A DNA stretch of 64,000 nucleotides from a virus (Duplodnaviria > Heunggongvirae > Uroviricota > Caudoviricetes), in IMG/VR virus record IMGVR_UViG_3300012933_000388, positions 1-64,000 of that record; one strand, given 5' to 3'. The notes under the pieces were generated by a model. That model ran no database searches. It was not told the DNA's origin and saw nothing but the letters and a program-made list of their open reading frames with translations. Positions within the stretch are counted from its first letter, which is position 1; each line of letters begins with the position of its first letter. The position numbers were made by a program, and so were the translations under genes. Below are positions 3,785-46,486 of the stretch, in pieces.

Positions 3785-6700
3785 TCATGCGCCACGCAAC
3801 ATACAACCGTTGAACCAAGTAATAGCTGAGTTATTAACTGCCGTAACAGTTACGTTCCCGCCCGAACCTTGCTGAACGTATATTTCAAAGTAATCACCAG
3901 TGCCGTTTGCATACACCAATGAGCTTACTTGCATTGCCCAGAAGTTGGTAGCAATTTGCGCTCCTCTCTGGTTTATGCCACGCTTGTATTCTGTACCGTT
4001 TTTGTAAAGAATAATCATTATTTCGCCAGTGCCACTGGCACCATCTAGTCGAACTTCTGCATTCAATTGATAATAGCCTTCAACCGTAGGGGTGAATCTC
4101 GAGCTAGCGTAATTATTATTGGTGTCAAACTCTTCTACTTGAAATAGGACCTTGGTCTGAACATCAGTTGGAATTGTTTGGAGTGTGTTGTTTGCATATG
4201 CGGAGAATGCAGGACCATTGACTGCTTGCTTACCACCGACGGTGATCGGGCCTGGAACATTTAGCGCGCCCGTATCAGATAAAGAAAATATTGTTGCACT
4301 ATACGCACTGTTAATAATTTCTATTCCACCAACACTATTCAATCGGAACGATTTAGTGTTTGCGGTTGCACCAGCAGTTTTATTTGTGACCTTTAAGAAG
4401 TCAGCATACCCAGTACCGCCTTGCGTATTGGAAGCATTAACAATTAATGGATAACCGGTTGGAGTTGCACCAGCATATGTCAATGTTAAAGTATTGCTGT
4501 TGACGTTGACGGCAGAGATAGCACCGACGAAGCTAATGTTGTTTGAAGTGAGTGACGCAACACCATTAGCATATGCATACTGATTGGCAGCAATGCCGCT
4601 AAGGTATAGTGCGTTGTTAGCAGTGCCGGATATGTTGTCTGGTATCACGATCCCTGACACTTGCTCAACGTTAACAATAACTGCTGGTGTACCAGGTACT
4701 GTTGGTGTTGTACCGGCTGCATATGAAACCAATTTCACATGGCCGCCTTCGGATGAGTGCATCACCTGAACTCTATCACCAGCGTTGACAGTCACCATGA
4801 ACGGAGTAACAGCAATCAAGCTTCCAGGATCCTGACCAGTGTTCTTTCTATTGACTGAAAATCTACTATTAGTGTTTGTTTGATCGGTGCCGTTGATTCG
4901 AATCCACACATTGACGTCGTCGTCGGAATTACCATTATTTTCATACTGGTTGCTATATTCAATGTGGTATGTACCGCTATGTGCAAAGACTATATCGTTG
5001 TTGCTACCGACCGTTACGCCGTTTGTTCCATCATATGATGCAGTAATAGGAACGACGTATGCGTTGGTTGTATTAGATAACGCAACGTTAGCGCCGTTAT
5101 AGTAGAACGCCCCAAAGTATCCAGTAGTGAAGTTGTTAGATGTTCCGTTCTGGTTAATCCACTGGCTAAGCGCAGTGTTGTATGTCAACACTTGATTGTT
5201 CAACGGACCAGTAATAGTAACATCAGTCAGACTATCGATCGTAGTTGGAATCGTTGGCTTATTCTTAATGAAGTCAATCGCTAATGTATTCGATTGATTC
5301 CAATCAGTTTGAATCTGAGATGCAGTGGCATTAGTCCAATATACTCCTGTACCATTGGAGGCTAACACTTGGCCAGCAGATCCTTTAGCATTGTTTGCTG
5401 TAATCGATACAAGGGTTGCGTTGTTGGTATTAATGCCTGTTGAGTCGATAGTTGCTGTAGTGATTAGTGTATTGCTACCTACAGGCGTTGTTTGGAATGT
5501 TATCTTTGTGCCTGTATTGGCAGTATAGAAGTCTTCAGCAGCGTTCAAGTTGATACGAACAATACTACCTACGTACGTGTTGCTACCTGCCGCCCACCCT
5601 TGAGCTGTCAGACGCAACAAAGTATCGCCCGACAGCGTTGGTAGCGGTGAAGCTGCTGTTCCTCGAGCAGCCCTACCAGCAACAGATGCATATGCACCAG
5701 CACCATATGCATCAAAACCAATACGTGCTGGCTGCCCATCTTGCGCAACCGCTTGGATTAACGATCCAGAGAAGTTGCGAGGTTGAATGTCTCCTGTACT
5801 GGATCCGACTATTGTTAATGCCGCCTGTGATGTTAGTAGTGTTGCTGGAGTGTTGATAGTTACCAGACCCTCACGAGTTACACCGAATGTTTGGTTGCCA
5901 GTATCATAGCTGTTTACTACAATCGGGCGGTTGATGACAAGATTGCCAGTCCCTAATGTCGCTCCAATATAAAACGTTGCTTCTGTATTAGTTAACTGTA
6001 TGTAATTGTTTTGCAATAAAAAGTTACCAACACGAAGACCGCCATTAGATTGTTGTGTTGTATTTGCAATCGCAATATAGAATATACCATTAGCAAGTGT
6101 TAACTTTTGATCTGGAAACCCTGTCGTCTGATCTGCAAATGTAACAGAATTACCACCAACCCAAATGGACTCCCAGCGGTTGGTATTATTGCCGAGCGAG
6201 TATGTTAAGCTAGTATTCGGAATGATGGATGATGGAACGTGCAACCAGTCGACTGTTGTATTAGCGCTGATTACTTGATTACTAATTGTAATAGTTGTAC
6301 CGTCAATCTTTACACCACCCTTAGTGGTAGTAGAAGCAGTAGGGAGGACATAACCACCAGGGCCCCCGCCCGTTGGATCTTGTGCGGTCCACTTCTTGAT
6401 AGATTCATTATATGTAAGCACCTGGCCGTCTGTAGCACCAAGAACAGACGAACGAGCAACATCATCCAAGTCTCTTAACCATACTGCACCACCGCCTGGC
6501 CCGGTCATGGAAATCTTACCAACCCAACCTTCCAACAATTTCAACTTCTGTTGAATGTCCTTCAAGTCTCTACCAGTAACTTCTGGAGCAGGCTGGACGA
6601 ACATCGAAGGCGGTTGACCCTTCTTCTTAATTTTCTTAGCTGCCTCTTTGGCAAGTGATGGCTCTTCAATGGGCGCAAGGATCGCTTCCTCAATCACTTC

Positions 6701-7078
6701 TGGAATCTCAACAATACCTTCCAGGACATCCTCAACCTGTTGACCTTGGTCCGCATCCTCGGCGATAGTCACTTGTGGTTCGTCGGAAACTGCATTAGCC
6801 TTGATATCGTCAATCTTCGCGAGCACAGTCGCAAAACGATCTAACAGAGCCTGTTCTTCCGCGCTCTTTTGCTTTTCTTCAGCCATCAGCTTGCTAATCT
6901 GGCCAGAAAGGTCAGCGAACGTAGATTTGAAAACAGCCTTACGTTCTTCTTGTAAAGCAATCTGTTTCTTTTCTTTTTGTTCTTCAGCTATAATCTGGTC
7001 AAACACAGACTGTTCTGTCTCTACACCGAGACGTTCGTTCATTTTGACAATGAGGCGGAGTTCTTTTAGTTTATTCAT
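3785..7078 (-). CDS. tail fiber protein
   Basis: 1097 aa. N-terminal coiled-coil (EEQKEKKQIALQEERK...), repeated QVLTYN..W units, and a long Gly/Thr/Asn/Ser-rich beta-type body. Late-type AGATAAATATT motif 6 nt before the ATG. Confidence 0.7.
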   Translation of the reverse strand: MNKLKELRLIVKMNERLGVETEQSVFDQIIAEEQKEKKQIALQEERKAVFKSTFADLSGQISKLMAEEKQKSAEEQALLDRFATVLAKIDDIKANAVSDEPQVTIAEDADQGQQVEDVLEGIVEIPEVIEEAILAPIEEPSLAKEAAKKIKKKGQPPSMFVQPAPEVTGRDLKDIQQKLKLLEGWVGKISMTGPGGGAVWLRDLDDVARSSVLGATDGQVLTYNESIKKWTAQDPTGGGPGGYVLPTASTTTKGGVKIDGTTITISNQVISANTTVDWLHVPSSIIPNTSLTYSLGNNTNRWESIWVGGNSVTFADQTTGFPDQKLTLANGIFYIAIANTTQQSNGGLRVGNFLLQNNYIQLTNTEATFYIGATLGTGNLVINRPIVVNSYDTGNQTFGVTREGLVTINTPATLLTSQAALTIVGSSTGDIQPRNFSGSLIQAVAQDGQPARIGFDAYGAGAYASVAGRAARGTAASPLPTLSGDTLLRLTAQGWAAGSNTYVGSIVRINLNAAEDFYTANTGTKITFQTTPVGSNTLITTATIDSTGINTNNATLVSITANNAKGSAGQVLASNGTGVYWTNATASQIQTDWNQSNTLAIDFIKNKPTIPTTIDSLTDVTITGPLNNQVLTYNTALSQWINQNGTSNNFTTGYFGAFYYNGANVALSNTTNAYVVPITASYDGTNGVTVGSNNDIVFAHSGTYHIEYSNQYENNGNSDDDVNVWIRINGTDQTNTNSRFSVNRKNTGQDPGSLIAVTPFMVTVNAGDRVQVMHSSEGGHVKLVSYAAGTTPTVPGTPAVIVNVEQVSGIVIPDNISGTANNALYLSGIAANQYAYANGVASLTSNNISFVGAISAVNVNSNTLTLTYAGATPTGYPLIVNASNTQGGTGYADFLKVTNKTAGATANTKSFRLNSVGGIEIINSAYSATIFSLSDTGALNVPGPITVGGKQAVNGPAFSAYANNTLQTIPTDVQTKVLFQVEEFDTNNNYASSRFTPTVEGYYQLNAEVRLDGASGTGEIMIILYKNGTEYKRGINQRGAQIATNFWAMQVSSLVYANGTGDYFEIYVQQGSGGNVTVTAVNNSAITWFNGCMLRGA

Positions 7079-28368: not shown

Positions 28369-28528
28369 CATAGGCGATTAGTATCAGACTGAGCTGTACG
28401 CTTATTCTAAAAGTCATTTGTCCGCAGCCGCCGTCCACCCCAGTTGCTTTCGAATGACCCTATTATACATGGTTTTGGGAAGTCGGCAACTAGGCTGTAA
28501 GTATCAGACTAGAGTTGAAGGGTACTGG

Positions 28529-28557
28529 TTGTACAAATTCCAAAACTATTGTACAAT
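28529..28557 (+). promoter_or_regulatory. sigma70-type promoter TTGTAC-N17-TACAAT
   Basis: Divergent from the - strand promoter. Precedes P1. Confidence 0.5.
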
Positions 28558-28578
28558 AGTGTTTTAGGAGATAAAAAA

Positions 28579-28917
28579 ATGAATAAAGTTGTTTTTGGTT
28601 TTGGTGTGAGTGTTGATTTTATTAAAAAGAATGTTGATTTTGATTTTGAATTTGAGGGTAGTGGTGTATATGAGTTTGTTGGTGGTAGTGGTGAAATATA
28701 TGGTTATGAGAAGATTAGTAATAATAATGAAGTTGAATTGATGAATGTGGATGATATTCTAAATTCTATTGTTGATGAAGATTTTAGTGAAAAAGATATT
28801 AACAAATTGAAAGAGTTTGTTTTTAGTGATTTTGATGATGATTTGGGTTGTGAGAAAATGAGGTATGTTTGTTGTTATGGTGAGGATGATTTTAGAGAAT
28901 ATTATTATGTGAAATAA
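28579..28917 (+). CDS. highly acidic small protein P1 (112 aa); DNA-mimic/anti-defence candidate
   Basis: ATG after AGGAGATAAAAAA. MNKVVFGFGVSVDF... About 30% D+E. Paralog of P3. Extreme T-ending codon bias. Confidence 0.45.
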   Translation: MNKVVFGFGVSVDFIKKNVDFDFEFEGSGVYEFVGGSGEIYGYEKISNNNEVELMNVDDILNSIVDEDFSEKDINKLKEFVFSDFDDDLGCEKMRYVCCYGEDDFREYYYVK

Positions 28918-28951
28918 TAACATACTAAAATGTAAGCTTATTTTAAAAAAG

Positions 28952-28980
28952 TTGTACAAAATTGAAATTTGTATTATAAT
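28952..28980 (+). promoter_or_regulatory. consensus sigma70 promoter TTGTAC-N17-TATAAT (module copy 1)
   Basis: 57-bp module ctaaaatgtaagcttatttt..gttgtacaaaattgaaatttgtattataat, duplicated at 29243-29303. Confidence 0.55.
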
Positions 28981-29025
28981 ATATTTGTAATTTGATAAAA
29001 TGTAAACTTTTTAAAAGGGGATAGT

Positions 29026-29208
29026 ATGAAAGTAGCAAAAGTTGTGTTGAACATTGAAGTGTCAATTAATGAAAATGATTATAATGATTTGATGGCAAAT
29101 TTGAAAGATGTTTGTGGGTTGACTAATAAGTGTGACTTAGAAAATTATATTAGTGATGGTTTAGTGTATGATATTGAGAAAAATAATAGTAAGTTTTTGT
29201 TTGATTAA
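29026..29208 (+). CDS. acidic small protein P2 (60 aa)
   Basis: SD AAGGGG. Followed by a GAAA-tetraloop terminator. Confidence 0.4.
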   Translation: MKVAKVVLNIEVSINENDYNDLMANLKDVCGLTNKCDLENYISDGLVYDIEKNNSKFLFD

Positions 29209-29214
29209 AAGTGG

Positions 29215-29240
29215 GAGGGACACGAAAGTGTCCTTTCTAT
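29215..29240 (+). terminator. rho-independent terminator (GGACAC-GAAA-GTGTCC + TTTC)
   Basis: Stem-loop with GAAA tetraloop. Confidence 0.45.
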
Positions 29241-29274
29241 ACTTTACTAAAATGTAAGCTTATTTGAAAAAAAG

Positions 29275-29303
29275 TTGTACAAAATTGAAATTTGTATTAT
29301 AAT
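29275..29303 (+). promoter_or_regulatory. consensus sigma70 promoter TTGTAC-N17-TATAAT (module copy 2)
   Basis: Duplicate of the 28952 module. Confidence 0.55.
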
Positions 29304-29336
29304 TGGTTTTCTGTTTAAATGAAAAAGGAATTTGAA

Positions 29337-29714
29337 ATGAATACAAAAGTGTTTAGTTTTGGTGTGGATGAAGATTCGTTAACTTTTGAAACAGAATTTG
29401 ATTCTTTAGAGTCTTATTTTAAAGTGGAAGGAATTCGCTATTGTGGCTATTTCTTAGACAAATATAATACTGAGGTAGTCAATAGTGTTACTGTTCAAGA
29501 TAAAGAGGAACTTTTTGATTATGATGAAGGTGAGTTAGAATTAGCTAAGTTTGATGAAATGGTAGCTAAGTATGATTCATTTTTGAAAAATAATAGTGAT
29601 TATGTGTTAGTCAATTATTGTATTGAATATGATATTTCTTGGATATTAATGAGTAAAGCTGATTATGCTAAGTTTTTAGAATTGTGTGAACTAGAAGTAG
29701 CAAACGAAGAATAA
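29337..29714 (+). CDS. highly acidic small protein P3 (125 aa), paralog of P1
   Basis: SD AAGGAA. MNTKVFSFGVDED parallels P1 MNKVVFGFGVSVD. Could also start at ATG 29319. Confidence 0.45.
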   Translation: MNTKVFSFGVDEDSLTFETEFDSLESYFKVEGIRYCGYFLDKYNTEVVNSVTVQDKEELFDYDEGELELAKFDEMVAKYDSFLKNNSDYVLVNYCIEYDISWILMSKADYAKFLELCELEVANEE

Positions 29715-40650: not shown

Positions 40651-41601
40651 ATGGCACATATGGTCGAGACGATGGCATACGCTGGTGAAACGCCATGGCA
40701 CGGTTTGGGCGTGCAGGTACCAGCAGACTTATCTCCAGCTCAGATGCTGGAAAAAGCTGGCTTGGACTGGACGGTAGAAAAAGTTCCTGCTTTCGCAGAA
40801 ATCGGCGGGAAAAAAACCTCGGTCGGCTGGAGCGCTCTTGTCCGTAGTAATGATGAGAAAGTATTGTCTGTAGTTTCTAATGATTGGAACCCGGTCCAGA
40901 ACCATGAAGCTTTTGAATTCTTCCATGAATATTGCGCTGTTGGTGATATGGAAATGAATACCGCCGGTTCTTTGCGTGATGGCCAGATCGTTTGGGGCCT
41001 TGCTAAAGTAAAACAGTCTTTTGAGCTCTTTAAGGGCGATACAGTCGAGTCATATTTGCTGTTTACTAACCCTCATAAGTTCGGTCAATCGATTGACGTC
41101 CGCTTTACACCTATTCGCGTCGTCTGTAATAACACATTGACGCTGTCACTCGAGCAAAAAGCCGACCGAGTCGTCAAGAAAAGCCACCGTACACAGTTTG
41201 ATCCTAACATGGTCAAAGAGCAACTTGGCATTGCAACGGATAAACTGGCAAAATACAAGGAAATGGCTCAATTCTTGGGTAGCAAGCGCTACAACAACGA
41301 GTCTCTGACCGACTATTTTAACAAAATCTTCCCTGTTATCGCATACAACAAGGAAAAAGGCCCCCAGCGTAAGATTTTATCTAAGTCTGCCGAGCGTGCA
41401 TTGGAAGTTATCCACACACAACCTGGTGCTAACTACGCTGAAGGTTCATGGTGGCAAGCGTTTAACGCAGTGACATACCTGACTGACCACGAAATTGGTC
41501 GCTCTACCGACACTCGTTTACAATCGGCATGGTTCGGACCCAATAAGAACCTGAAATTAAAGGCGCTGGAGACAGCAGTTGAAATGGCGGAGATGGCATA
41601 A
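40651..41601 (+). CDS. DUF932-family protein (WHGLG motif; phage/plasmid-like protein)
   Basis: N-terminus MAYAGETPWHGLGV and a length of about 316 aa match the DUF932/TIGR03299 family. Confidence 0.5.
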   Translation: MAHMVETMAYAGETPWHGLGVQVPADLSPAQMLEKAGLDWTVEKVPAFAEIGGKKTSVGWSALVRSNDEKVLSVVSNDWNPVQNHEAFEFFHEYCAVGDMEMNTAGSLRDGQIVWGLAKVKQSFELFKGDTVESYLLFTNPHKFGQSIDVRFTPIRVVCNNTLTLSLEQKADRVVKKSHRTQFDPNMVKEQLGIATDKLAKYKEMAQFLGSKRYNNESLTDYFNKIFPVIAYNKEKGPQRKILSKSAERALEVIHTQPGANYAEGSWWQAFNAVTYLTDHEIGRSTDTRLQSAWFGPNKNLKLKALETAVEMAEMA

Positions 41602-42042: not shown

Positions 42043-42882
42043 ATGATGTACAATAACAAAATGGTCGCCGTTATCAAGACTGGTGGCAGAGTTCTTCGCG
42101 AAGCGGACAGCACAGTCTACCTTCCATTCGGATGCGAGTATTCGATCCTTCTCAAAAACCTCAACACCGTTCGCGCTGAAGTCAAAATCACAATCGATGA
42201 TGTGGATGTCCTTGGTGGCAATACGATTGTCGTCAATGCTAATGACAGAGTAGAGCTTGAGCGTTTCCTCAAAGACCTTTCTAAAGGTAACCGATTCAAA
42301 TTCATCGAGCGTTCTGCTAGCGTAGAAGAGCATCGTGGCGTCGGTGCTACCGATGGCCTGATCCGCATTGAATGGCAATTCGAAAAGCCACGTCCAATTT
42401 ATACCGCTCGCCCAGATCCATTCCCACAATGGGGCGGCCAAACACCATCGCAATGGCTTACCGCTTCTGGGTATAATGTCAACGGTGTGATGCGTAGCGT
42501 CGATTTCAGCAATGGTGAGGCTACTAAGGCATATGCATCCGCTGCTGCAGATGTTACATTAGCACAGATGGGGTATGCGACAAACAGCGAAGTGCATGAT
42601 GGCATGGCAACAATGGATTGTGCATTTGCCGCACCTGCTAATGATGTTGGTATTACTGTTCCAGGATCAATGTCCGGTCAGAAGTTCACTACAGTCGCTT
42701 CGTTCCCATTGGAAGAACAAAAATACGCAATGGTGTTGCAACTGAAGGGCGAAACAGCGGATAATAAGGTAACGGCTCCTGTGACCGTAAAGGCTAAACC
42801 AAAGTGTGTAACTTGTGGTAAGGTAAATAAGGCCACAGCAAAGTTTTGTTCTAATTGTGGAACAGCATTAGAGATCGTATAA
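42043..42882 (+). CDS. hypothetical protein with C-terminal zinc-ribbon
   Basis: 279 aa. C-terminus CVTCGKVNKATAKFCSNCG. Confidence 0.4.
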   Translation: MMYNNKMVAVIKTGGRVLREADSTVYLPFGCEYSILLKNLNTVRAEVKITIDDVDVLGGNTIVVNANDRVELERFLKDLSKGNRFKFIERSASVEEHRGVGATDGLIRIEWQFEKPRPIYTARPDPFPQWGGQTPSQWLTASGYNVNGVMRSVDFSNGEATKAYASAAADVTLAQMGYATNSEVHDGMATMDCAFAAPANDVGITVPGSMSGQKFTTVASFPLEEQKYAMVLQLKGETADNKVTAPVTVKAKPKCVTCGKVNKATAKFCSNCGTALEIV

Positions 42883-43026
42883 TGAAAAGCATGAAGCAAG
42901 CAGCTAATTTTAAGATGCGTGGTAGAATTACCATGCGTTGCCATTGCCGCTGCTGCGAGGTTTTTAATCCGAAGTGGGCATATCGTATGAAAATGGCTGC
43001 CAAGGATATAAAAGAATTGTTGTAAT

Positions 43027-43080
43027 CCCTTCAAAGAGAAGGACTTCTGGACGCGGGTTCGACTCCCGCCATCTCCACCA
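43027..43080 (+). ncRNA. ssrA: tmRNA acceptor piece of a circularly permuted (two-piece) ssrA gene
   Basis: GGAC-GCGGG-TTCGACT-CCCGC-CATCTCC-ACCA (43049-43080) is near-identical to the E. coli tmRNA 3' end GGACGCGGGUUCAACUCCCGCCAGCUCCACCA. The 5' boundary is uncertain. Confidence 0.6.
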
Positions 43081-43218
43081 AAAGTAATCACCGAAGTGAC
43101 TAGGAATAAAAGCGGTCATCGAGTTAGGGCATCAGGTCAAGACTGTGTTAGTAGTGTGGACAGCCTCCCTAACCGACCACTAAGGCGAGTGGTTGAGAAT
43201 GCAACGATTACTTTTGAT

Positions 43219-43440
43219 GGGGATGCCATGGTTTCGACAGGGGTAGATATTAGAGACGGCAACACGGTAGGCGATGACCGCAAATCAAGCAAATAAAAGT
43301 AACTGCAAACGAAAGCTCTTACGCATTGGCAGCCTAAACGCTGACTAGGGTTTCGGATGGTTTCCTCGTAACAGAATAACCATCCACTAATATATCAGAC
43401 ACGTTGCCCATTAGAGGCCCTGTATGGTCTAGCAGTACCA
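43219..43440 (+). ncRNA. ssrA: tmRNA coding piece (5' tRNA-like half, pseudoknot region, tag ORF ANESSYALAA)
   Basis: GGGGATGCCATGGTTTCGACAGGGG parallels the ssrA 5' end GGGGCUGAUUCUGGAUUCGACGGG. Resume codon GCA at 43305 reads GCAAACGAAAGCTCTTACGCATTGGCAGCCTAA. No T-arm or CCA lies downstream. The 3' boundary is uncertain. Confidence 0.55.
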
Positions 43441-43755
43441 TCAAAGAAACTGCTAATATTGCTTATCATAAGTAATAGACCAAATCAAATAGATGGAGAT
43501 TCAATGTCGCTCATCCCACAAGATAAACTAGCAACAGATTTCTGGCAACACAACTGTGAAGCAAAAGAAGGTGCTGTAGTTTATAACGAAAAGGGCAAAC
43601 CTTGCCCCTACTGCTCGGCAACCGAGCCCAAGCCAACCAAATAAGGCTTGTTAACCCCAATGATTCGCTAGTGCCACTTTTGTGGTGAGTACACATGCCA
43701 GTCGACTTTTCGGCTTGGGCATAGTATAATAGCTGATCTGACTAGGAGGTGCATT

Positions 43756-44328
43756 ATGCATTCAACAGCTGTAAACGCTGTCGATAAGACGGTGGTACAA
43801 CTTATCAGGGCCGTGTGCTTTGTTATTGGTGTAACTGTCGTTATATCTGCTTTAAGACTCGCTATTGACTATCGTACTGAAAATACAGTTGCGCCAGTAG
43901 TCAATACATCCGCAAGAGAAATCGAAACCCAGCTTACGTGCCTAGCACGGAACATTTACTGGGAAGCTGCATCCGAACCTTTTGAAGGCAAGGTCGCTGT
44001 AGCACAAGTCACAATGAACCGCATGAATAGCGGTAAGTTCCCAGACACAGTCTGTGGAGTTGTCCACCAGAAGACGACTGTGTATAATAAGATCGTCTGC
44101 CAATTCTCGTGGCTATGTGAAAATAACTATCGTACACGTCCCATACACCGTAAGATGTATGAGGAAAGTGAAGAAGTTGCTAAGATGGTGATGTTAGAGG
44201 GCTTCCGTTTGAAGACATTGAACGATGCTTTGTATTATCACGCTGATTATGTCAACCCACGATGGAAGTTAGACAAAGTTACGCAGATTGGTCGTCATAT
44301 TTTCTATAAGGAAAAGAGCAATGGATAA
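43756..44328 (+). CDS. cell wall hydrolase, SleB/CwlJ-like (Hydrolase_2), with N-terminal membrane anchor
   Basis: LARNIYWEAASEPFEGKVAVAQVTMNRMNSGKFPDTVCGVVHQK ... ALYYHADYVNPRW. Confidence 0.6.
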   Translation: MHSTAVNAVDKTVVQLIRAVCFVIGVTVVISALRLAIDYRTENTVAPVVNTSAREIETQLTCLARNIYWEAASEPFEGKVAVAQVTMNRMNSGKFPDTVCGVVHQKTTVYNKIVCQFSWLCENNYRTRPIHRKMYEESEEVAKMVMLEGFRLKTLNDALYYHADYVNPRWKLDKVTQIGRHIFYKEKSNG

Positions 44329-44608
44329 GTTGGAATCTATTAAAGAGTATCTCCGTCATATCTCGACGGAGACTATCGGATGGCTAGCTGTGATTATGAT
44401 TCACTGTAGTACGATTCCTCCTATCCTCGCTCTTCTGCTCGGCGTATCAGACCACCTACCTTCTATTGATGTGGTAGCGTTTATGTGGTTCGGTTTAATC
44501 TTGCTTTTCATCAAAGCTCTGATTACCAAAGATATGTTGAATGTTATTACTATTGGCGTGGGGTTCATCATCCAAGCCATGTTACTCGGATTATTGGTAT
44601 TCAAATAA
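44321..44608 (+). CDS. small membrane protein (holin-like candidate)
   Basis: In-frame ATG overlapping the hydrolase stop. Two or three TM segments. Confidence 0.35.
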   Translation: MDKLESIKEYLRHISTETIGWLAVIMIHCSTIPPILALLLGVSDHLPSIDVVAFMWFGLILLFIKALITKDMLNVITIGVGFIIQAMLLGLLVFK

Positions 44609-44847
44609 TGGAAGAACAAATCAATCAACTCATTAACGTCCAGGACTTCTTATTAAAGATCGAATCGATCTCACGCGAGAAGCGTTTAGACGCTATGGAC
44701 GCAGTACTGTGGTATTGTGCCAACTCAGGCCTCGAAATTGAGACCGCTGCTGAGCTTATTCGTAAGAATGCAAAGATGAAAGCTCGCATCAAAAACGATG
44801 CAGAGAACAATGGATATTTTCCTAAGACCGCAAAGCTACCAATTTAA
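44608..44847 (+). CDS. hypothetical protein
   Basis: In-frame ATG (MEEQINQL). 80 aa. Confidence 0.35.
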   Translation: MEEQINQLINVQDFLLKIESISREKRLDAMDAVLWYCANSGLEIETAAELIRKNAKMKARIKNDAENNGYFPKTAKLPI

Positions 44848-44891
44848 CCTGAATTGATAATAATTTAAAATTATCACGAATTGATTATATT

Positions 44892-45476
44892 ATGAATGGA
44901 TACGAAGCGTACAAGTTATATGTTGCGATGAAGAACCACTTCAATTCGCAATCATATGACTACTTCAAGTACGGTGGCAAGACTCGGGCAAGTTTAGCCG
45001 CGTTTGAGAAACGGAACGATAAGCATTTCTTCAATGTCATTGGACGACATAAGGACTGCCAGAACTATATCCTCGCTAACATTGTTGAAGGTGGTCCCGA
45101 TCTTTGGGTCGGAGACATTGCCAACGAGCAACAAGCAGAGAGTGTGTATCTAAAGTGGAAAGCAAAGAACGAATCATTGACGTATAACTTTACGAATGAC
45201 TTGGATAAGATGCTTCCATCGTATGATGATAATTTGCTGGTGGAGCAGGGCCAGCATCCCCACTTATTGAAATTAGCAATGAGCAAAACAATTAACATTG
45301 AGACGCTCGTTATACTAAACGATATGTGTGGGTTCTTTAAGTATTGGTCTCGAAACATTACGGATCCTGTTGTTTGGCCTCGGTATAAGATGCTCGTCAA
45401 GAAGTACCGACCATTCGTTACATTTGATCAACAAAAAATGAAAAAAATTGTTGTAGATCACTTCAAAACCCAGTAA
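44892..45476 (+). CDS. 59: gp59-like helicase loader
   Basis: YKLYVAMKNHFNSQSYDYFKYGGKTRASLAAFEKRNDKHFFNVI aligns with T4 gp59 YKLYLMIKQHMNGKYDVIKYNWCMRVSDAAYQKRRDKYFFQKL. Confidence 0.75.
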   Translation: MNGYEAYKLYVAMKNHFNSQSYDYFKYGGKTRASLAAFEKRNDKHFFNVIGRHKDCQNYILANIVEGGPDLWVGDIANEQQAESVYLKWKAKNESLTYNFTNDLDKMLPSYDDNLLVEQGQHPHLLKLAMSKTINIETLVILNDMCGFFKYWSRNITDPVVWPRYKMLVKKYRPFVTFDQQKMKKIVVDHFKTQ

Positions 45477-45559
45477 AGTAAGCTAAATAAACATGCAGGT
45501 TGCAAGACTTGCAATACAACGTTTATATTTTTAATACTCCGCATATATAAGGAAATACA

Positions 45560-46486
45560 ATGGCAGATTTTAGCTCCCTCAAGAAAAACAGCAAGTCACA
45601 ATTCGACAAGCTCGTATCAGAAGTTCAGAAACTGAACGCACCAGCCCAAGGCGGCAACTCCCAAGACGAAGACAAGTACTGGAAACCAGAAGTAGATAAA
45701 GCTGGTAACGGCTACGCTATTCTCCGTTTCTTACCAGCACCAGGTGGTGAGGACCTTCCATACGTCCGTATCTTCGACCATGGCTTCCAAGGCCCAGGTG
45801 GATGGTACATCGAGAAGTCTTTGACTACGCTTGGTGAAAAGGATCCAGTATCCGAATACAACAGCCAGTTGTGGAACTCAGGCATCGAAGCAAACAAAGA
45901 ACTCGTGCGTAAGCAAAAGCGTCGTTTGTCTTTCGTCTCTAACGTGTTGGTCGTTAAAGATCCAGCACACCCAGAGAACGAAGGTAAGGTCATGTTGTTC
46001 AAGTATGGCAAGAAGATCTGGGACAAGATCGAACTCGCTATGAACCCAGAGTTCGAAGATGAACAAAAGATCAACCCATTTGATATGTGGGAAGGTGCAA
46101 ACTTCAAACTCAAGATCCGTAAGGTTGAAGGCTATCGTAACTACGATAAGTCAGAGTTCGAAGCAGCAGCTCCTATCAGTCAAGATGATGATGAGTTGGA
46201 AGCAATTTGGAAACAAGAGCACTCACTTGCTGAGTTGGTCGATCCAAAGAACTTCAAGTCTTATGATGAATTGAAGGCCCGTCTCCACAAAGCCTTGGCT
46301 TTGGATGGTCGCACTCAACCACGTACGACGGCAGAGTCTTCAACTGCTCCATGGGACGACGAACCAGCAGCTCCAGCAGCTTCTGCTCCAGCGTTCAAGA
46401 CAGCAGCAGCTCGCCCAGCTCCAGCAGCAACAGTAGATGACGATGATGATTCATTGGACTTCTTCAAGAAGCTCGCAGAAGAGTAA
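45560..46486 (+). CDS. 32: gp32-like single-stranded DNA-binding protein
   Basis: KYWKPEVDKAGNGYAILRFLPAP matches the T4 gp32 N-terminal region (WKLKLDNAGNGQAVIRFLP). Acidic C-terminal tail. Follows gp59 as in T4. Confidence 0.75.
   Translation: MADFSSLKKNSKSQFDKLVSEVQKLNAPAQGGNSQDEDKYWKPEVDKAGNGYAILRFLPAPGGEDLPYVRIFDHGFQGPGGWYIEKSLTTLGEKDPVSEYNSQLWNSGIEANKELVRKQKRRLSFVSNVLVVKDPAHPENEGKVMLFKYGKKIWDKIELAMNPEFEDEQKINPFDMWEGANFKLKIRKVEGYRNYDKSEFEAAAPISQDDDELEAIWKQEHSLAELVDPKNFKSYDELKARLHKALALDGRTQPRTTAESSTAPWDDEPAAPAASAPAFKTAAARPAPAATVDDDDDSLDFFKKLAEE

Follow-up and report, generated by a model that had tools for sequence, protein, structure and literature searches.

An intact circularly permuted two-piece tmRNA gene of the beta type in an uncultivated T4-like phage

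Can a T4-like phage carry its own gene for transfer-messenger RNA (tmRNA, the product of ssrA), and can it do so in the circularly permuted form, in which the 3′ half of the gene precedes the 5′ half? This question is raised by a locus around position 43,000 of a 64,000-nucleotide stretch of viral DNA, positions 1 to 64,000 of the IMG/VR record IMGVR_UViG_3300012933_000388 (the whole stretch is called the window below). An earlier reading made from the sequence alone (the sequence-only reading) proposed that the locus encodes a permuted, two-piece tmRNA with the tag ANESSYALAA. ARAGORN, the Rfam models and covariation among relatives agree with this proposal, and the positions that had been assigned to the T-arm, the acceptor strand, the 5′ half, the tag and an inverted repeat all match the sequence. 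We conclude that the tmRNA gene at this locus is real and intact: it is a circularly permuted, two-piece gene of the beta type, carried by an uncultivated T4-like phage.

The scan that had been proposed as a check, with ARAGORN and the Rfam models of permuted tmRNAs, returned a permuted call and two models above threshold. ARAGORN reports a permuted tmRNA at 42988-43428 as the sole RNA gene of the window. Membership in an Rfam family was judged by a score at or above the curated gathering threshold over the full model, and two families match on this basis: RF04321 (tmRNA_permuted) with 147.5 bits (threshold 47; span 43018-43337, model positions 1-213 of 213) and RF01850 (beta_tmRNA) with 140.1 bits (threshold 84; span 42974-43397, model positions 1-331 of 331). 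The corresponding E-values, 4e-29 and 9e-43, lie far beyond chance. A start at 43018 is common to both alignments, and the match to the beta_tmRNA model ends at 43397. RF01850 is also the best-matching member of the tmRNA clan at this locus, so the subtype is betaproteobacterial; the permuted order that had been noticed stands, but its assignment to the alphaproteobacterial or cyanobacterial type does not.

The permuted order itself can be read directly, with the CCA ending at 43080, G1 at 43219 and the tag starting at 43305 (Table 1). The 3′ half thus lies upstream of the 5′ half, as had been claimed, although the spacer between them measures 138 nt and not 135 nt. The exact T-loop motif GGTTCRANTCC occurs once in the window, at 43056-43066, so that there is no second T-arm or standard-order tRNA-like end 3′ of the tag, in agreement with the sequence-only reading. 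The two acceptor strands form all seven expected pairs (43219-43225 with 43070-43076), including G3:U70 at 43221:43074, and the 5′ half, GGGGATGCCATGGTTTCGACAGGGG at 43219-43243, is found as described. The 3′ end does resemble that of enterobacterial ssrA, but calling it a near-perfect copy was too strong, since identity to the Escherichia coli gene is 88.6% over 44 nt.

The gene belongs to a phage that can be placed by its other genes. The window encodes, among others, gp32, gp59, gp33, gp5 and the baseplate wedge proteins gp6, gp7 and gp8, which identify it as coming from a T4-like myovirus. This myovirus is divergent; its gp6 is only 34-40% identical to the proteins of Caulobacter phage Cr30, Sinorhizobium phiM12-like phages, Stenotrophomonas phage DLP_6, cyanomyophages and Pelagibacter phage HTVC008M. 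No near-identical DNA was found among deposited phages for positions 38-48 kb of the window, and the phage is without a close relative in culture. L110, a contig assembled in a public sequencing run, is 97% identical and begins inside the tmRNA gene. To collect relatives, we used a gp32-anchored search of IMG/VR, which gave 80 loci. ARAGORN calls permuted tmRNAs in most of the related loci, amounting to 47 unique genes when the window is included. For retention of the gene, we counted those gp32-anchored loci whose upstream flank is 5.5 kb or longer. Of these 33 loci, 21 carry the tmRNA, on the same strand and 1.7-4.4 kb upstream of gp32, and the gene order in relatives is tmRNA, hydrolase, gp33, gp59, gp32.

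We next consider whether the predicted structure is maintained in these relatives. We aligned 33 window-like variants after removing the intervening sequence (IVS) that separates the two pieces, and projected nine helices from the window onto the alignment. Column shuffles, and registers in which the 3′ partner was slid by 1-3 columns, served as controls. Over the 48 proposed pairs, 95.0% of the cells are canonical, compared with 83.4 ± 0.5% (maximum 85.3%) in column shuffles and 42-56% in slid registers. Double-sided, compensatory changes are seen in 28 of the 48 pairs. In each of the acceptor stem, the T-arm, P2, the terminal helix and the hairpin of pseudoknot PK2, 87-100% of the cells are canonical, and several pair types are found. 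G3:U70 is unchanged in 33 of 33 variants, while acceptor pairs 4-6 vary by compensation. In the T-arm (100% canonical), the pair 43054:43068 occurs in four types. P2, with 99.6% canonical cells, has double-sided changes in six of its seven pairs, and the terminal helix is 100% canonical with such changes in three of six. In pseudoknot PK1, stem P4 is 87% canonical as against 71.5% in shuffles, and all three of its pairs are compensatory. The terminal ACCA is present in 47 of 47 genes. A local hairpin of the acceptor piece is nearly invariant, and covariation therefore neither supports nor refutes it; the Rfam beta model pairs its bases otherwise. The gene itself is intact, and selection acts on its structure throughout the whole phage clade.

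These patterns bear on the idea that the locus is a non-functional relic, either a piece of host ssrA captured as an att fragment of a temperate ancestor or a decaying pseudogene. Temperate phages of Klebsiella and Acinetobacter do match about 45 nt of the 3′ end only (matches H8 and H11-H15), as for att fragments. At the present locus, however, neither half is missing, nor are the tag and the pseudoknots; the matches to both Rfam models run over the full length, and compensatory changes extend across dozens of phages. Furthermore, the phage is T4-like, and there is no integrase among the proteins examined. The distribution of the exact 25-nt 5′ segment of the tmRNA also argues against a relic: it occurs in 24 viral contigs, but of 185,579 species genomes of bacteria and archaea just one contains it. 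The latter match is to L109 (CALMJT010000228.1), a 46-kb contig of an 'uncultured Alteromonadales' metagenome-assembled genome (MAG), which has a permuted tmRNA on the minus strand (583-1031; tag ANDSTYALAA), an endolysin (phrog_181) and another phage-family protein, and is likely to be a phage or prophage contig binned into the MAG. The search of the species genomes for a host or donor with this exact 25-mer thus yielded only a phage-like match, and the tmRNA lineage looks phage-borne. For these reasons, we regard a relic as extremely improbable.

A further conserved feature concerns the IVS. In the window, a perfect 11-bp inverted repeat (43079-43089 with 43206-43216) belongs to a 20-nt helix of 90% complementarity (43070-43089 with 43206-43225). 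This helix prolongs the acceptor stem by A73:U(-1), a C-A mismatch, C75:G(-3) and A76:U(-4), and then continues into the IVS. The precursor of the window folds with -67.8 kcal/mol (z = -2.8) into the closing helix and three predicted hairpins inside the IVS. Among the 47 genes, the IVSs have lengths of 26-200 nt and 42 different 5′ decamers. Nonetheless, in these 47 distinct IVSs the first ten bases pair with the bases 5′ of the leader at 9.3 of 10 positions, as against 6.6 ± 1.5 of 10 when IVS partners are swapped. It had been suggested that this repeat places the CCA end next to the GGGG start in the precursor, and this suggestion gains support because the helix is conserved by covariation in so many distinct IVSs.

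Based on these observations, we consider it very likely that the locus is a functional circularly permuted beta-type ssrA gene of a lytic T4-like myovirus. As judged from the alignments, every element required for trans-translation appears to be present and conserved. In the mechanism that we propose, a single precursor would be transcribed, in the window probably by read-through from upstream genes, and in many relatives from their own sigma-70 promoter with a transcription start about at the mature 5′ end. The IVS would fold back, and its long helix would extend the acceptor stem so that ACCA is held beside the TGAT leader. Host RNase P would then cleave before G43219, and host nucleases would trim to the CCA at 43080; we infer the identity of these enzymes, which would cut the precursor at the repeat. 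The products would be two RNAs of about 63 nt and at least 167 nt, joined by the acceptor stem, P2 and the terminal helix. Host AlaRS would charge this RNA via G3:U70 and A73, and host SmpB and EF-Tu would bring it to ribosomes stalled on broken mRNAs. Translation would resume at GCA 43305 and append ANESSYALAA, a ClpXP-type degron. Indirect support for these predicted events comes from the conservation of the precursor helix and the leader.

Several observations weigh against this interpretation. First, folding energies do not by themselves support two-piece assembly. The cofold of acceptor and coding pieces that had been proposed as a check does yield the expected intermolecular acceptor, P2 and terminal helices in its minimum-energy structure, but no energy gain over shuffles: the joining energy is -9.2 kcal/mol, compared with -10.7 ± 4.1 kcal/mol for shuffled acceptor pieces. 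The case for assembly therefore rests on covariation. Second, stem P3 of PK1 barely exceeds its shuffle control (82% versus 76%) and has an A-C mismatch at 43264:43281 in the window, and PK1 is a plausible element, but the weakest one, of the structure. Third, neither a promoter nor a terminator for the gene is recognised in the window (a scan near 43000 was empty), and for this reason its 5′ and 3′ ends are ones that we infer. Fourth, what the phage would gain is deduced from what is generally known about trans-translation: ribosomes would likely be kept free in infection, when mRNA cleavage and host shut-off yield many non-stop messages, and the role of the RNA in infection would be of this kind. 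Fifth, tblastn with an E. coli SmpB query found no SmpB in the window, which is 64 kb of a probably ~230-kb genome, or in 108 related loci. As no SmpB gene was found, the RNA presumably uses host factors, and most likely it depends on the host for RNase P, AlaRS, SmpB, EF-Tu and ClpXP.

The lack of a detected phage SmpB would also fit an inhibitory decoy, whose tRNA-like domain soaks up host SmpB and blocks host trans-translation, as suggested for DS6A; molecules of the DS6A type are reported to inhibit tmRNA (PMC4131195, PMC11915505). Such a decoy, however, needs no tag frame, PK1 or PK2. In the present family, the resume codon, degron ends and stop codon are kept, as are PK2 and, less clearly, PK1, and there are compensatory changes. 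We therefore judge a decoy to be very unlikely. More generally, the conserved tag frame and pseudoknots make both a decoy and a relic unlikely.

The register of the tag is fixed by the Rfam alignment and by 32 aligned relatives, all 32 of which start with GCNAAYGA; the tag that ARAGORN gives for the window, VTANESSYALAA, begins two codons early with respect to GCA 43305. Each of the 31 distinct tags of the window and its relatives begins with AN(D/E) and closes with hydrophobic-AA before a stop codon. One of the 31 equals a bacterial tag in ARAGORN's table, and the other 30, matching none there, offer no clue to the host. Tags vary widely among close phages: the closest relative, L005, has the tag ANDEAFLMAA, yet its flanking proteins are 73-94% identical to those of the window.

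This variability could mean that tagging is retargeted by phage-specific tags, an idea raised in PMC9004378. The tags are indeed phage-specific and fast-evolving, with a single match to a bacterial tag and a difference even between L005 and the window. On the other hand, all variants keep the ends relevant to E. coli ClpX and SspB. An AN(D/E) start, an aromatic residue and an xAA end are the features that these proteins recognise. Moreover, tmRNA tags any stalled ribosome, and we know of no way for a tmRNA to select host proteins. Retargeting is thus an explanation that we consider quite improbable, though it is possible as a refinement of ribosome rescue.

With regard to transcription, the open reading frame (ORF) at 42882-43025 reaches with its last codons (GAA TTG TTG TAA) into the tmRNA gene, sharing 8 nt at its start, and no promoter is recognised between this ORF and the gene. 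A TATAAA at 43007-43012 was rejected as a promoter, as a usable -35 element is missing and agreement with the T4 late motif is limited to 6 of 8 positions. With neither of the promoter types described below, and with an upstream ORF running into the gene, the window tmRNA is probably transcribed from further upstream and then cut out. The closest relatives, L005 and L008, have a similar read-in from upstream and neither promoter type.

Other relatives differ in this respect. In at least 12, a consensus sigma-70 promoter, TTGAC(A/T)-17-TATAAT, ends 7-9 nt before the same 5′ end (upstream flanks of this type are those of L085, L086, L089, L091, L096, L097, L100, L101, L102, L107, L036 and L046). 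A more distant subgroup (L019, L021, L028, L032, L047, L050 and L065) has a conserved ATAAATAG(A/G)(A/T)TTGCC motif, which in sequence resembles a T4-type late promoter. The two promoter types suggest that the timing of expression may differ between phages. A run of U follows the PK2 hairpin in some relatives.

Expression timing is relevant to another explanation, in which the tmRNA serves mainly for counter-defence: by rescuing non-stop ribosomes, it would counteract toxin or abortive-infection systems with mRNA-cleaving activity (mRNA interferases and nucleases of a similar kind), rather than provide general upkeep of translation. E. coli tmRNA relieves the toxicity of RelE- and MazF-type mRNA cleavage. 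The gene is intact and retained across the clade, and the strong sigma-70 early-type promoters in many relatives fit an early need. However, the distant subgroup has the late-promoter-like ATAAATAG instead of an early promoter, about one-third of the relatives are without the gene, and no defence or anti-defence locus is linked to it in the window, its neighbours being the hydrolase, gp33, gp59 and gp32. We therefore regard a dedicated counter-defence role as doubtful, although of the explanations weighed against general ribosome rescue it is the least unlikely, and it too is possible as a refinement of such rescue.

Table 1. Features of the tmRNA locus and its surroundings, in window coordinates
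Feature	Position	Strand	Basis or remark
ORF of 47 codons, upstream	42882-43025	+	ORF list; no PHROG or Pfam match
Acceptor piece (upstream piece)	43018-43080	+	RF04321 and RF01850 alignments, ARAGORN 3′ tRNA domain
Terminal helix, 5′ strand	43018-43023	+	Acceptor piece
Local hairpin	43028-43032 with 43038-43042	+	Acceptor piece
P2, 5′ strand	43043-43049	+	Acceptor piece
T-arm GCGGG/TTCGACT/CCCGC	43053-43069 (43053-43057 with 43065-43069)	+	Read from sequence; T-loop TTCGACT
Acceptor 3′ strand CATCTCC	43070-43076	+	Read from sequence
Discriminator A73	43077	+	Read from sequence
Encoded CCA	43078-43080	+	Read from sequence
IVS, predicted to be removed	43081-43218 (138 nt)	+	Inverted repeat, precursor fold, covariation of closing helix
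IVS ends of closing helix	43081-43089 with 43206-43214, plus CCA and leader	+	Extends acceptor stem
TGAT leader	43215-43218	+	Directly 5′ of G1; present in 42 of 47 genes
Coding piece	43219-43385	+	Rfam alignments, cofold, covariation
Acceptor 5′ strand GGGGATG	43219-43225 (G3 = 43221)	+	Coding piece
D-loop-like segment CCATGGTTTCGA	43226-43237	+	Coding piece
P2, 3′ strand	43238-43244	+	Coding piece
Terminal helix, 3′ strand	43259-43264	+	Coding piece
Pseudoknot PK1	P3 43264-43267 with 43278-43281; P4 43275-43277 with 43285-43287	+	Coding piece
Tag frame ANESSYALAA	43305-43334; resume codon GCA 43305, stop TAA 43335-43337	+	Read from sequence
Pseudoknot PK2	43348-43385; hairpin 43355-43362 with 43378-43385; 43348-43350 with 43364-43366	+	3′ of tag
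Conserved downstream neighbourhood	43756-46486	+	Pfam labels on L110, PHROG matches, order in relatives
Cell-wall hydrolase	43756-44328	+	
ORF of 106 aa	44288-44608	+	
Late-transcription coactivator gp33	44608-44847	+	
gp59	44892-45476	+	
gp32	45560-46486	+	

The IVS deserves separate mention for what it might contain. The IVS sequence of the window is unique, matching nothing in relatives or in other parts of the window, and we therefore rejected the IVS as a conserved element in its own right. An ORF at 43096-43296 was likewise rejected as a gene, because it has a GTG start and no Shine-Dalgarno sequence, and spans the unconserved IVS and the tRNA-like domain. We also noticed a perfect 10-nt complementarity between IVS positions 43112-43121 and the 3′ side of PK1 (43272-43281), for which the expected chance count in the 551-nt region is about 0.1. 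As the IVSs of relatives are unrelated, this complementarity is not conserved and is probably due to chance, so it was not retained as a real element.

In several relatives, a small ORF fills the IVS, with its start about 10 nt past ACCA and the TGA of the leader as its stop codon. The longest of these, a 62-aa ORF (MKLFAKTRDNQ...EVFF), lies in the 200-nt IVSs of L012 (2351-2550), L087 and L107. Hydrophobic peptides of 26-27 aa, MTRKQESRQLRIFCICAALIIFAIVFL and MTWEDKKRIKITICCGLVILFALVFL, are predicted for L013-L015 (IVS of 95 nt) and L094 (IVS of 92 nt), a 37-aa ORF with an AAGGA ribosome-binding site for L109 (IVS of 147 nt), and a 10-aa ORF for L092 (IVS of 58 nt). The 62-aa ORF was rejected as a protein family, since it has no PHROG or Pfam match and a single near-identical homologue among 5.8 billion proteins. 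The closing helix partly dictates the ends of such peptides, so the coding capacity of these ORFs is putative, and the window's own IVS has no small ORF ending at the leader TGA. It is conceivable, if rather improbable, that the IVS is a cargo slot, such that maturation of the tmRNA also frees the IVS as a structured 138-nt RNA in the window and possibly as a mini-mRNA in close relatives with IVS ORFs.

Elsewhere in the window, which has a GC content of 44% and no tRNA genes detected by ARAGORN, two proteins encoded upstream of the tmRNA recur beside it in close relatives: a DUF932 / phrog_1221 protein (40651-41601, plus strand) and a protein of 279 aa with a zinc ribbon at its C terminus (42043-42882, plus strand). 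The region 28500-29400 has a GC content of 32%, a strong GC skew and small AT-rich ORFs, between which a promoter-like cassette of about 65 nt, ctaaaatgtaagcttatttt...gttgtacaaaattgaaatttgtattataat, is repeated at approximately 28925 and 29245. A 1097-aa ORF at 3785-7078 (minus strand) has no PHROG or Pfam match.

The closest known bacterial system is the betaproteobacterial tmRNA of RF01850, a two-piece type (Sharkady and Williams 2004, as cited in PMC9004378). The window gene shares with it the permuted order, the layout of P2, T-arm and acceptor stem, the D-loop-like UGGUUUCGAC, a nearly identical terminal helix (GUUGU with GCAAC), an AND/ANE...ALAA-type tag and a post-tag hairpin with a CCU(C/U)G..AC..AA loop. 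The bacterial type, however, is located on a chromosome, whereas the window gene is on a T4-like virus, and its 5′ 25-mer is missing from the species genomes except for the phage-like MAG contig described above. Moreover, the phage IVS is long and hypervariable where the Rfam consensus allows a short one, and the Rfam model includes a promoter, whereas the window copy is without its own.

The sequence-only reading knew of no permuted tmRNA in a T4-like phage. In this point it has been overtaken, as Melnitz, a T4-like marine myophage of OM43, has a published two-piece tmRNA (Buchholz et al. 2022, PMC9004378), and the T4-like DLP_6 also has one of the beta type. Permuted tmRNAs were found in 17 of 47 Melnitz-related contigs, and among 133 phage tmRNAs, 53 unique ones were two-piece (PMC9004378); a 2025 tmRNA database includes 79 bacteriophage sequences. 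Phage-borne permuted tmRNAs are thus already known, and a first-of-kind claim fails. Like the window, Melnitz and pelagimyophages are lytic T4-like myophages with a permuted ssrA upstream of gp33 on the same strand, and in both groups many but not all members have the gene (17 of 47 there, 21 of 33 here). The Melnitz tmRNA, however, clusters with those of alphaproteobacteria and carries a glutamine riboswitch within the 3′ domain (PMC9004378), whereas that of the window is of the beta type and is separated from gp33 by three ORFs. No riboswitch was detected with it: there is no match to a glutamine or other riboswitch at the gathering threshold in the window, nor at E ≤10 in 42800-43700.

We also found beta-type permuted tmRNAs in cultured phages, namely XacN1 (Xanthomonas), PA_L9 and PaMx31-like phages (Pseudomonas), and DLP_6 and Mendera-like phages (Stenotrophomonas). 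Those of XacN1, PA_L9, DLP_6 and Mendera match the same Rfam families (116-137 bits for RF04321 and 92-108 bits for RF01850) and have the ACCA end, the TGAT leader and the closing helix of the IVS. DLP_6 is T4-like too, with a gp6 36% identical to that of the window. In contrast to the window, XacN1, DLP_6 and Mendera have the gene beside or within tRNA arrays. The tags of the cultured phages are longer (12-13 residues by the AN(D/E) register; ARAGORN reads 14 for Mendera), and their sequences resemble the window over no more than some 40-75 nt in the tRNA-like 3′ half. The gene is unannotated in the GenBank records of XacN1 (L001, 1483-1903), PA_L9 (L002, 1478-1898), DLP_6 (L003, 1444-1787) and Mendera (L004, 1441-1814), and some related Stenotrophomonas phage records do label it as tmRNA. 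In PA_L9, a 'hypothetical protein' CDS ends inside the tmRNA, and in XacN1, two tRNA-Sup(CTA) genes lie about 1 kb upstream of it.

One-piece phage tmRNAs are known from the mycobacteriophage Bxz1 group and Bacillus phage G, and a tag-less mini-tmRNA from mycobacteriophage DS6A (PMC4131195). These are also phage-borne ssrA genes that presumably depend on host SmpB. The former two have the standard, unpermuted order, unlike the window gene, and the DS6A RNA has no tag frame, whereas that of the window is complete and conserved.

In comparison with these systems, several details appear to be new: how large and syntenic the uncultivated clade is, that the precursor helix and the leader are conserved, that promoters of two types occur, and that the IVS is hypervariable. 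We found no experimental tests of a phage tmRNA of the two-piece kind in the searchable literature, and the comparative set of 47 variants offers a basis for such experiments and for better annotation, as the records of XacN1, PA_L9, DLP_6 and Mendera omit the gene. While no concept is altered by the finding, it enlarges the group of phages with their own ribosome-rescue RNA by one well-documented case and by a sizeable clade of uncultivated members, and it shows that the beta-type two-piece tmRNA is widespread in phages.

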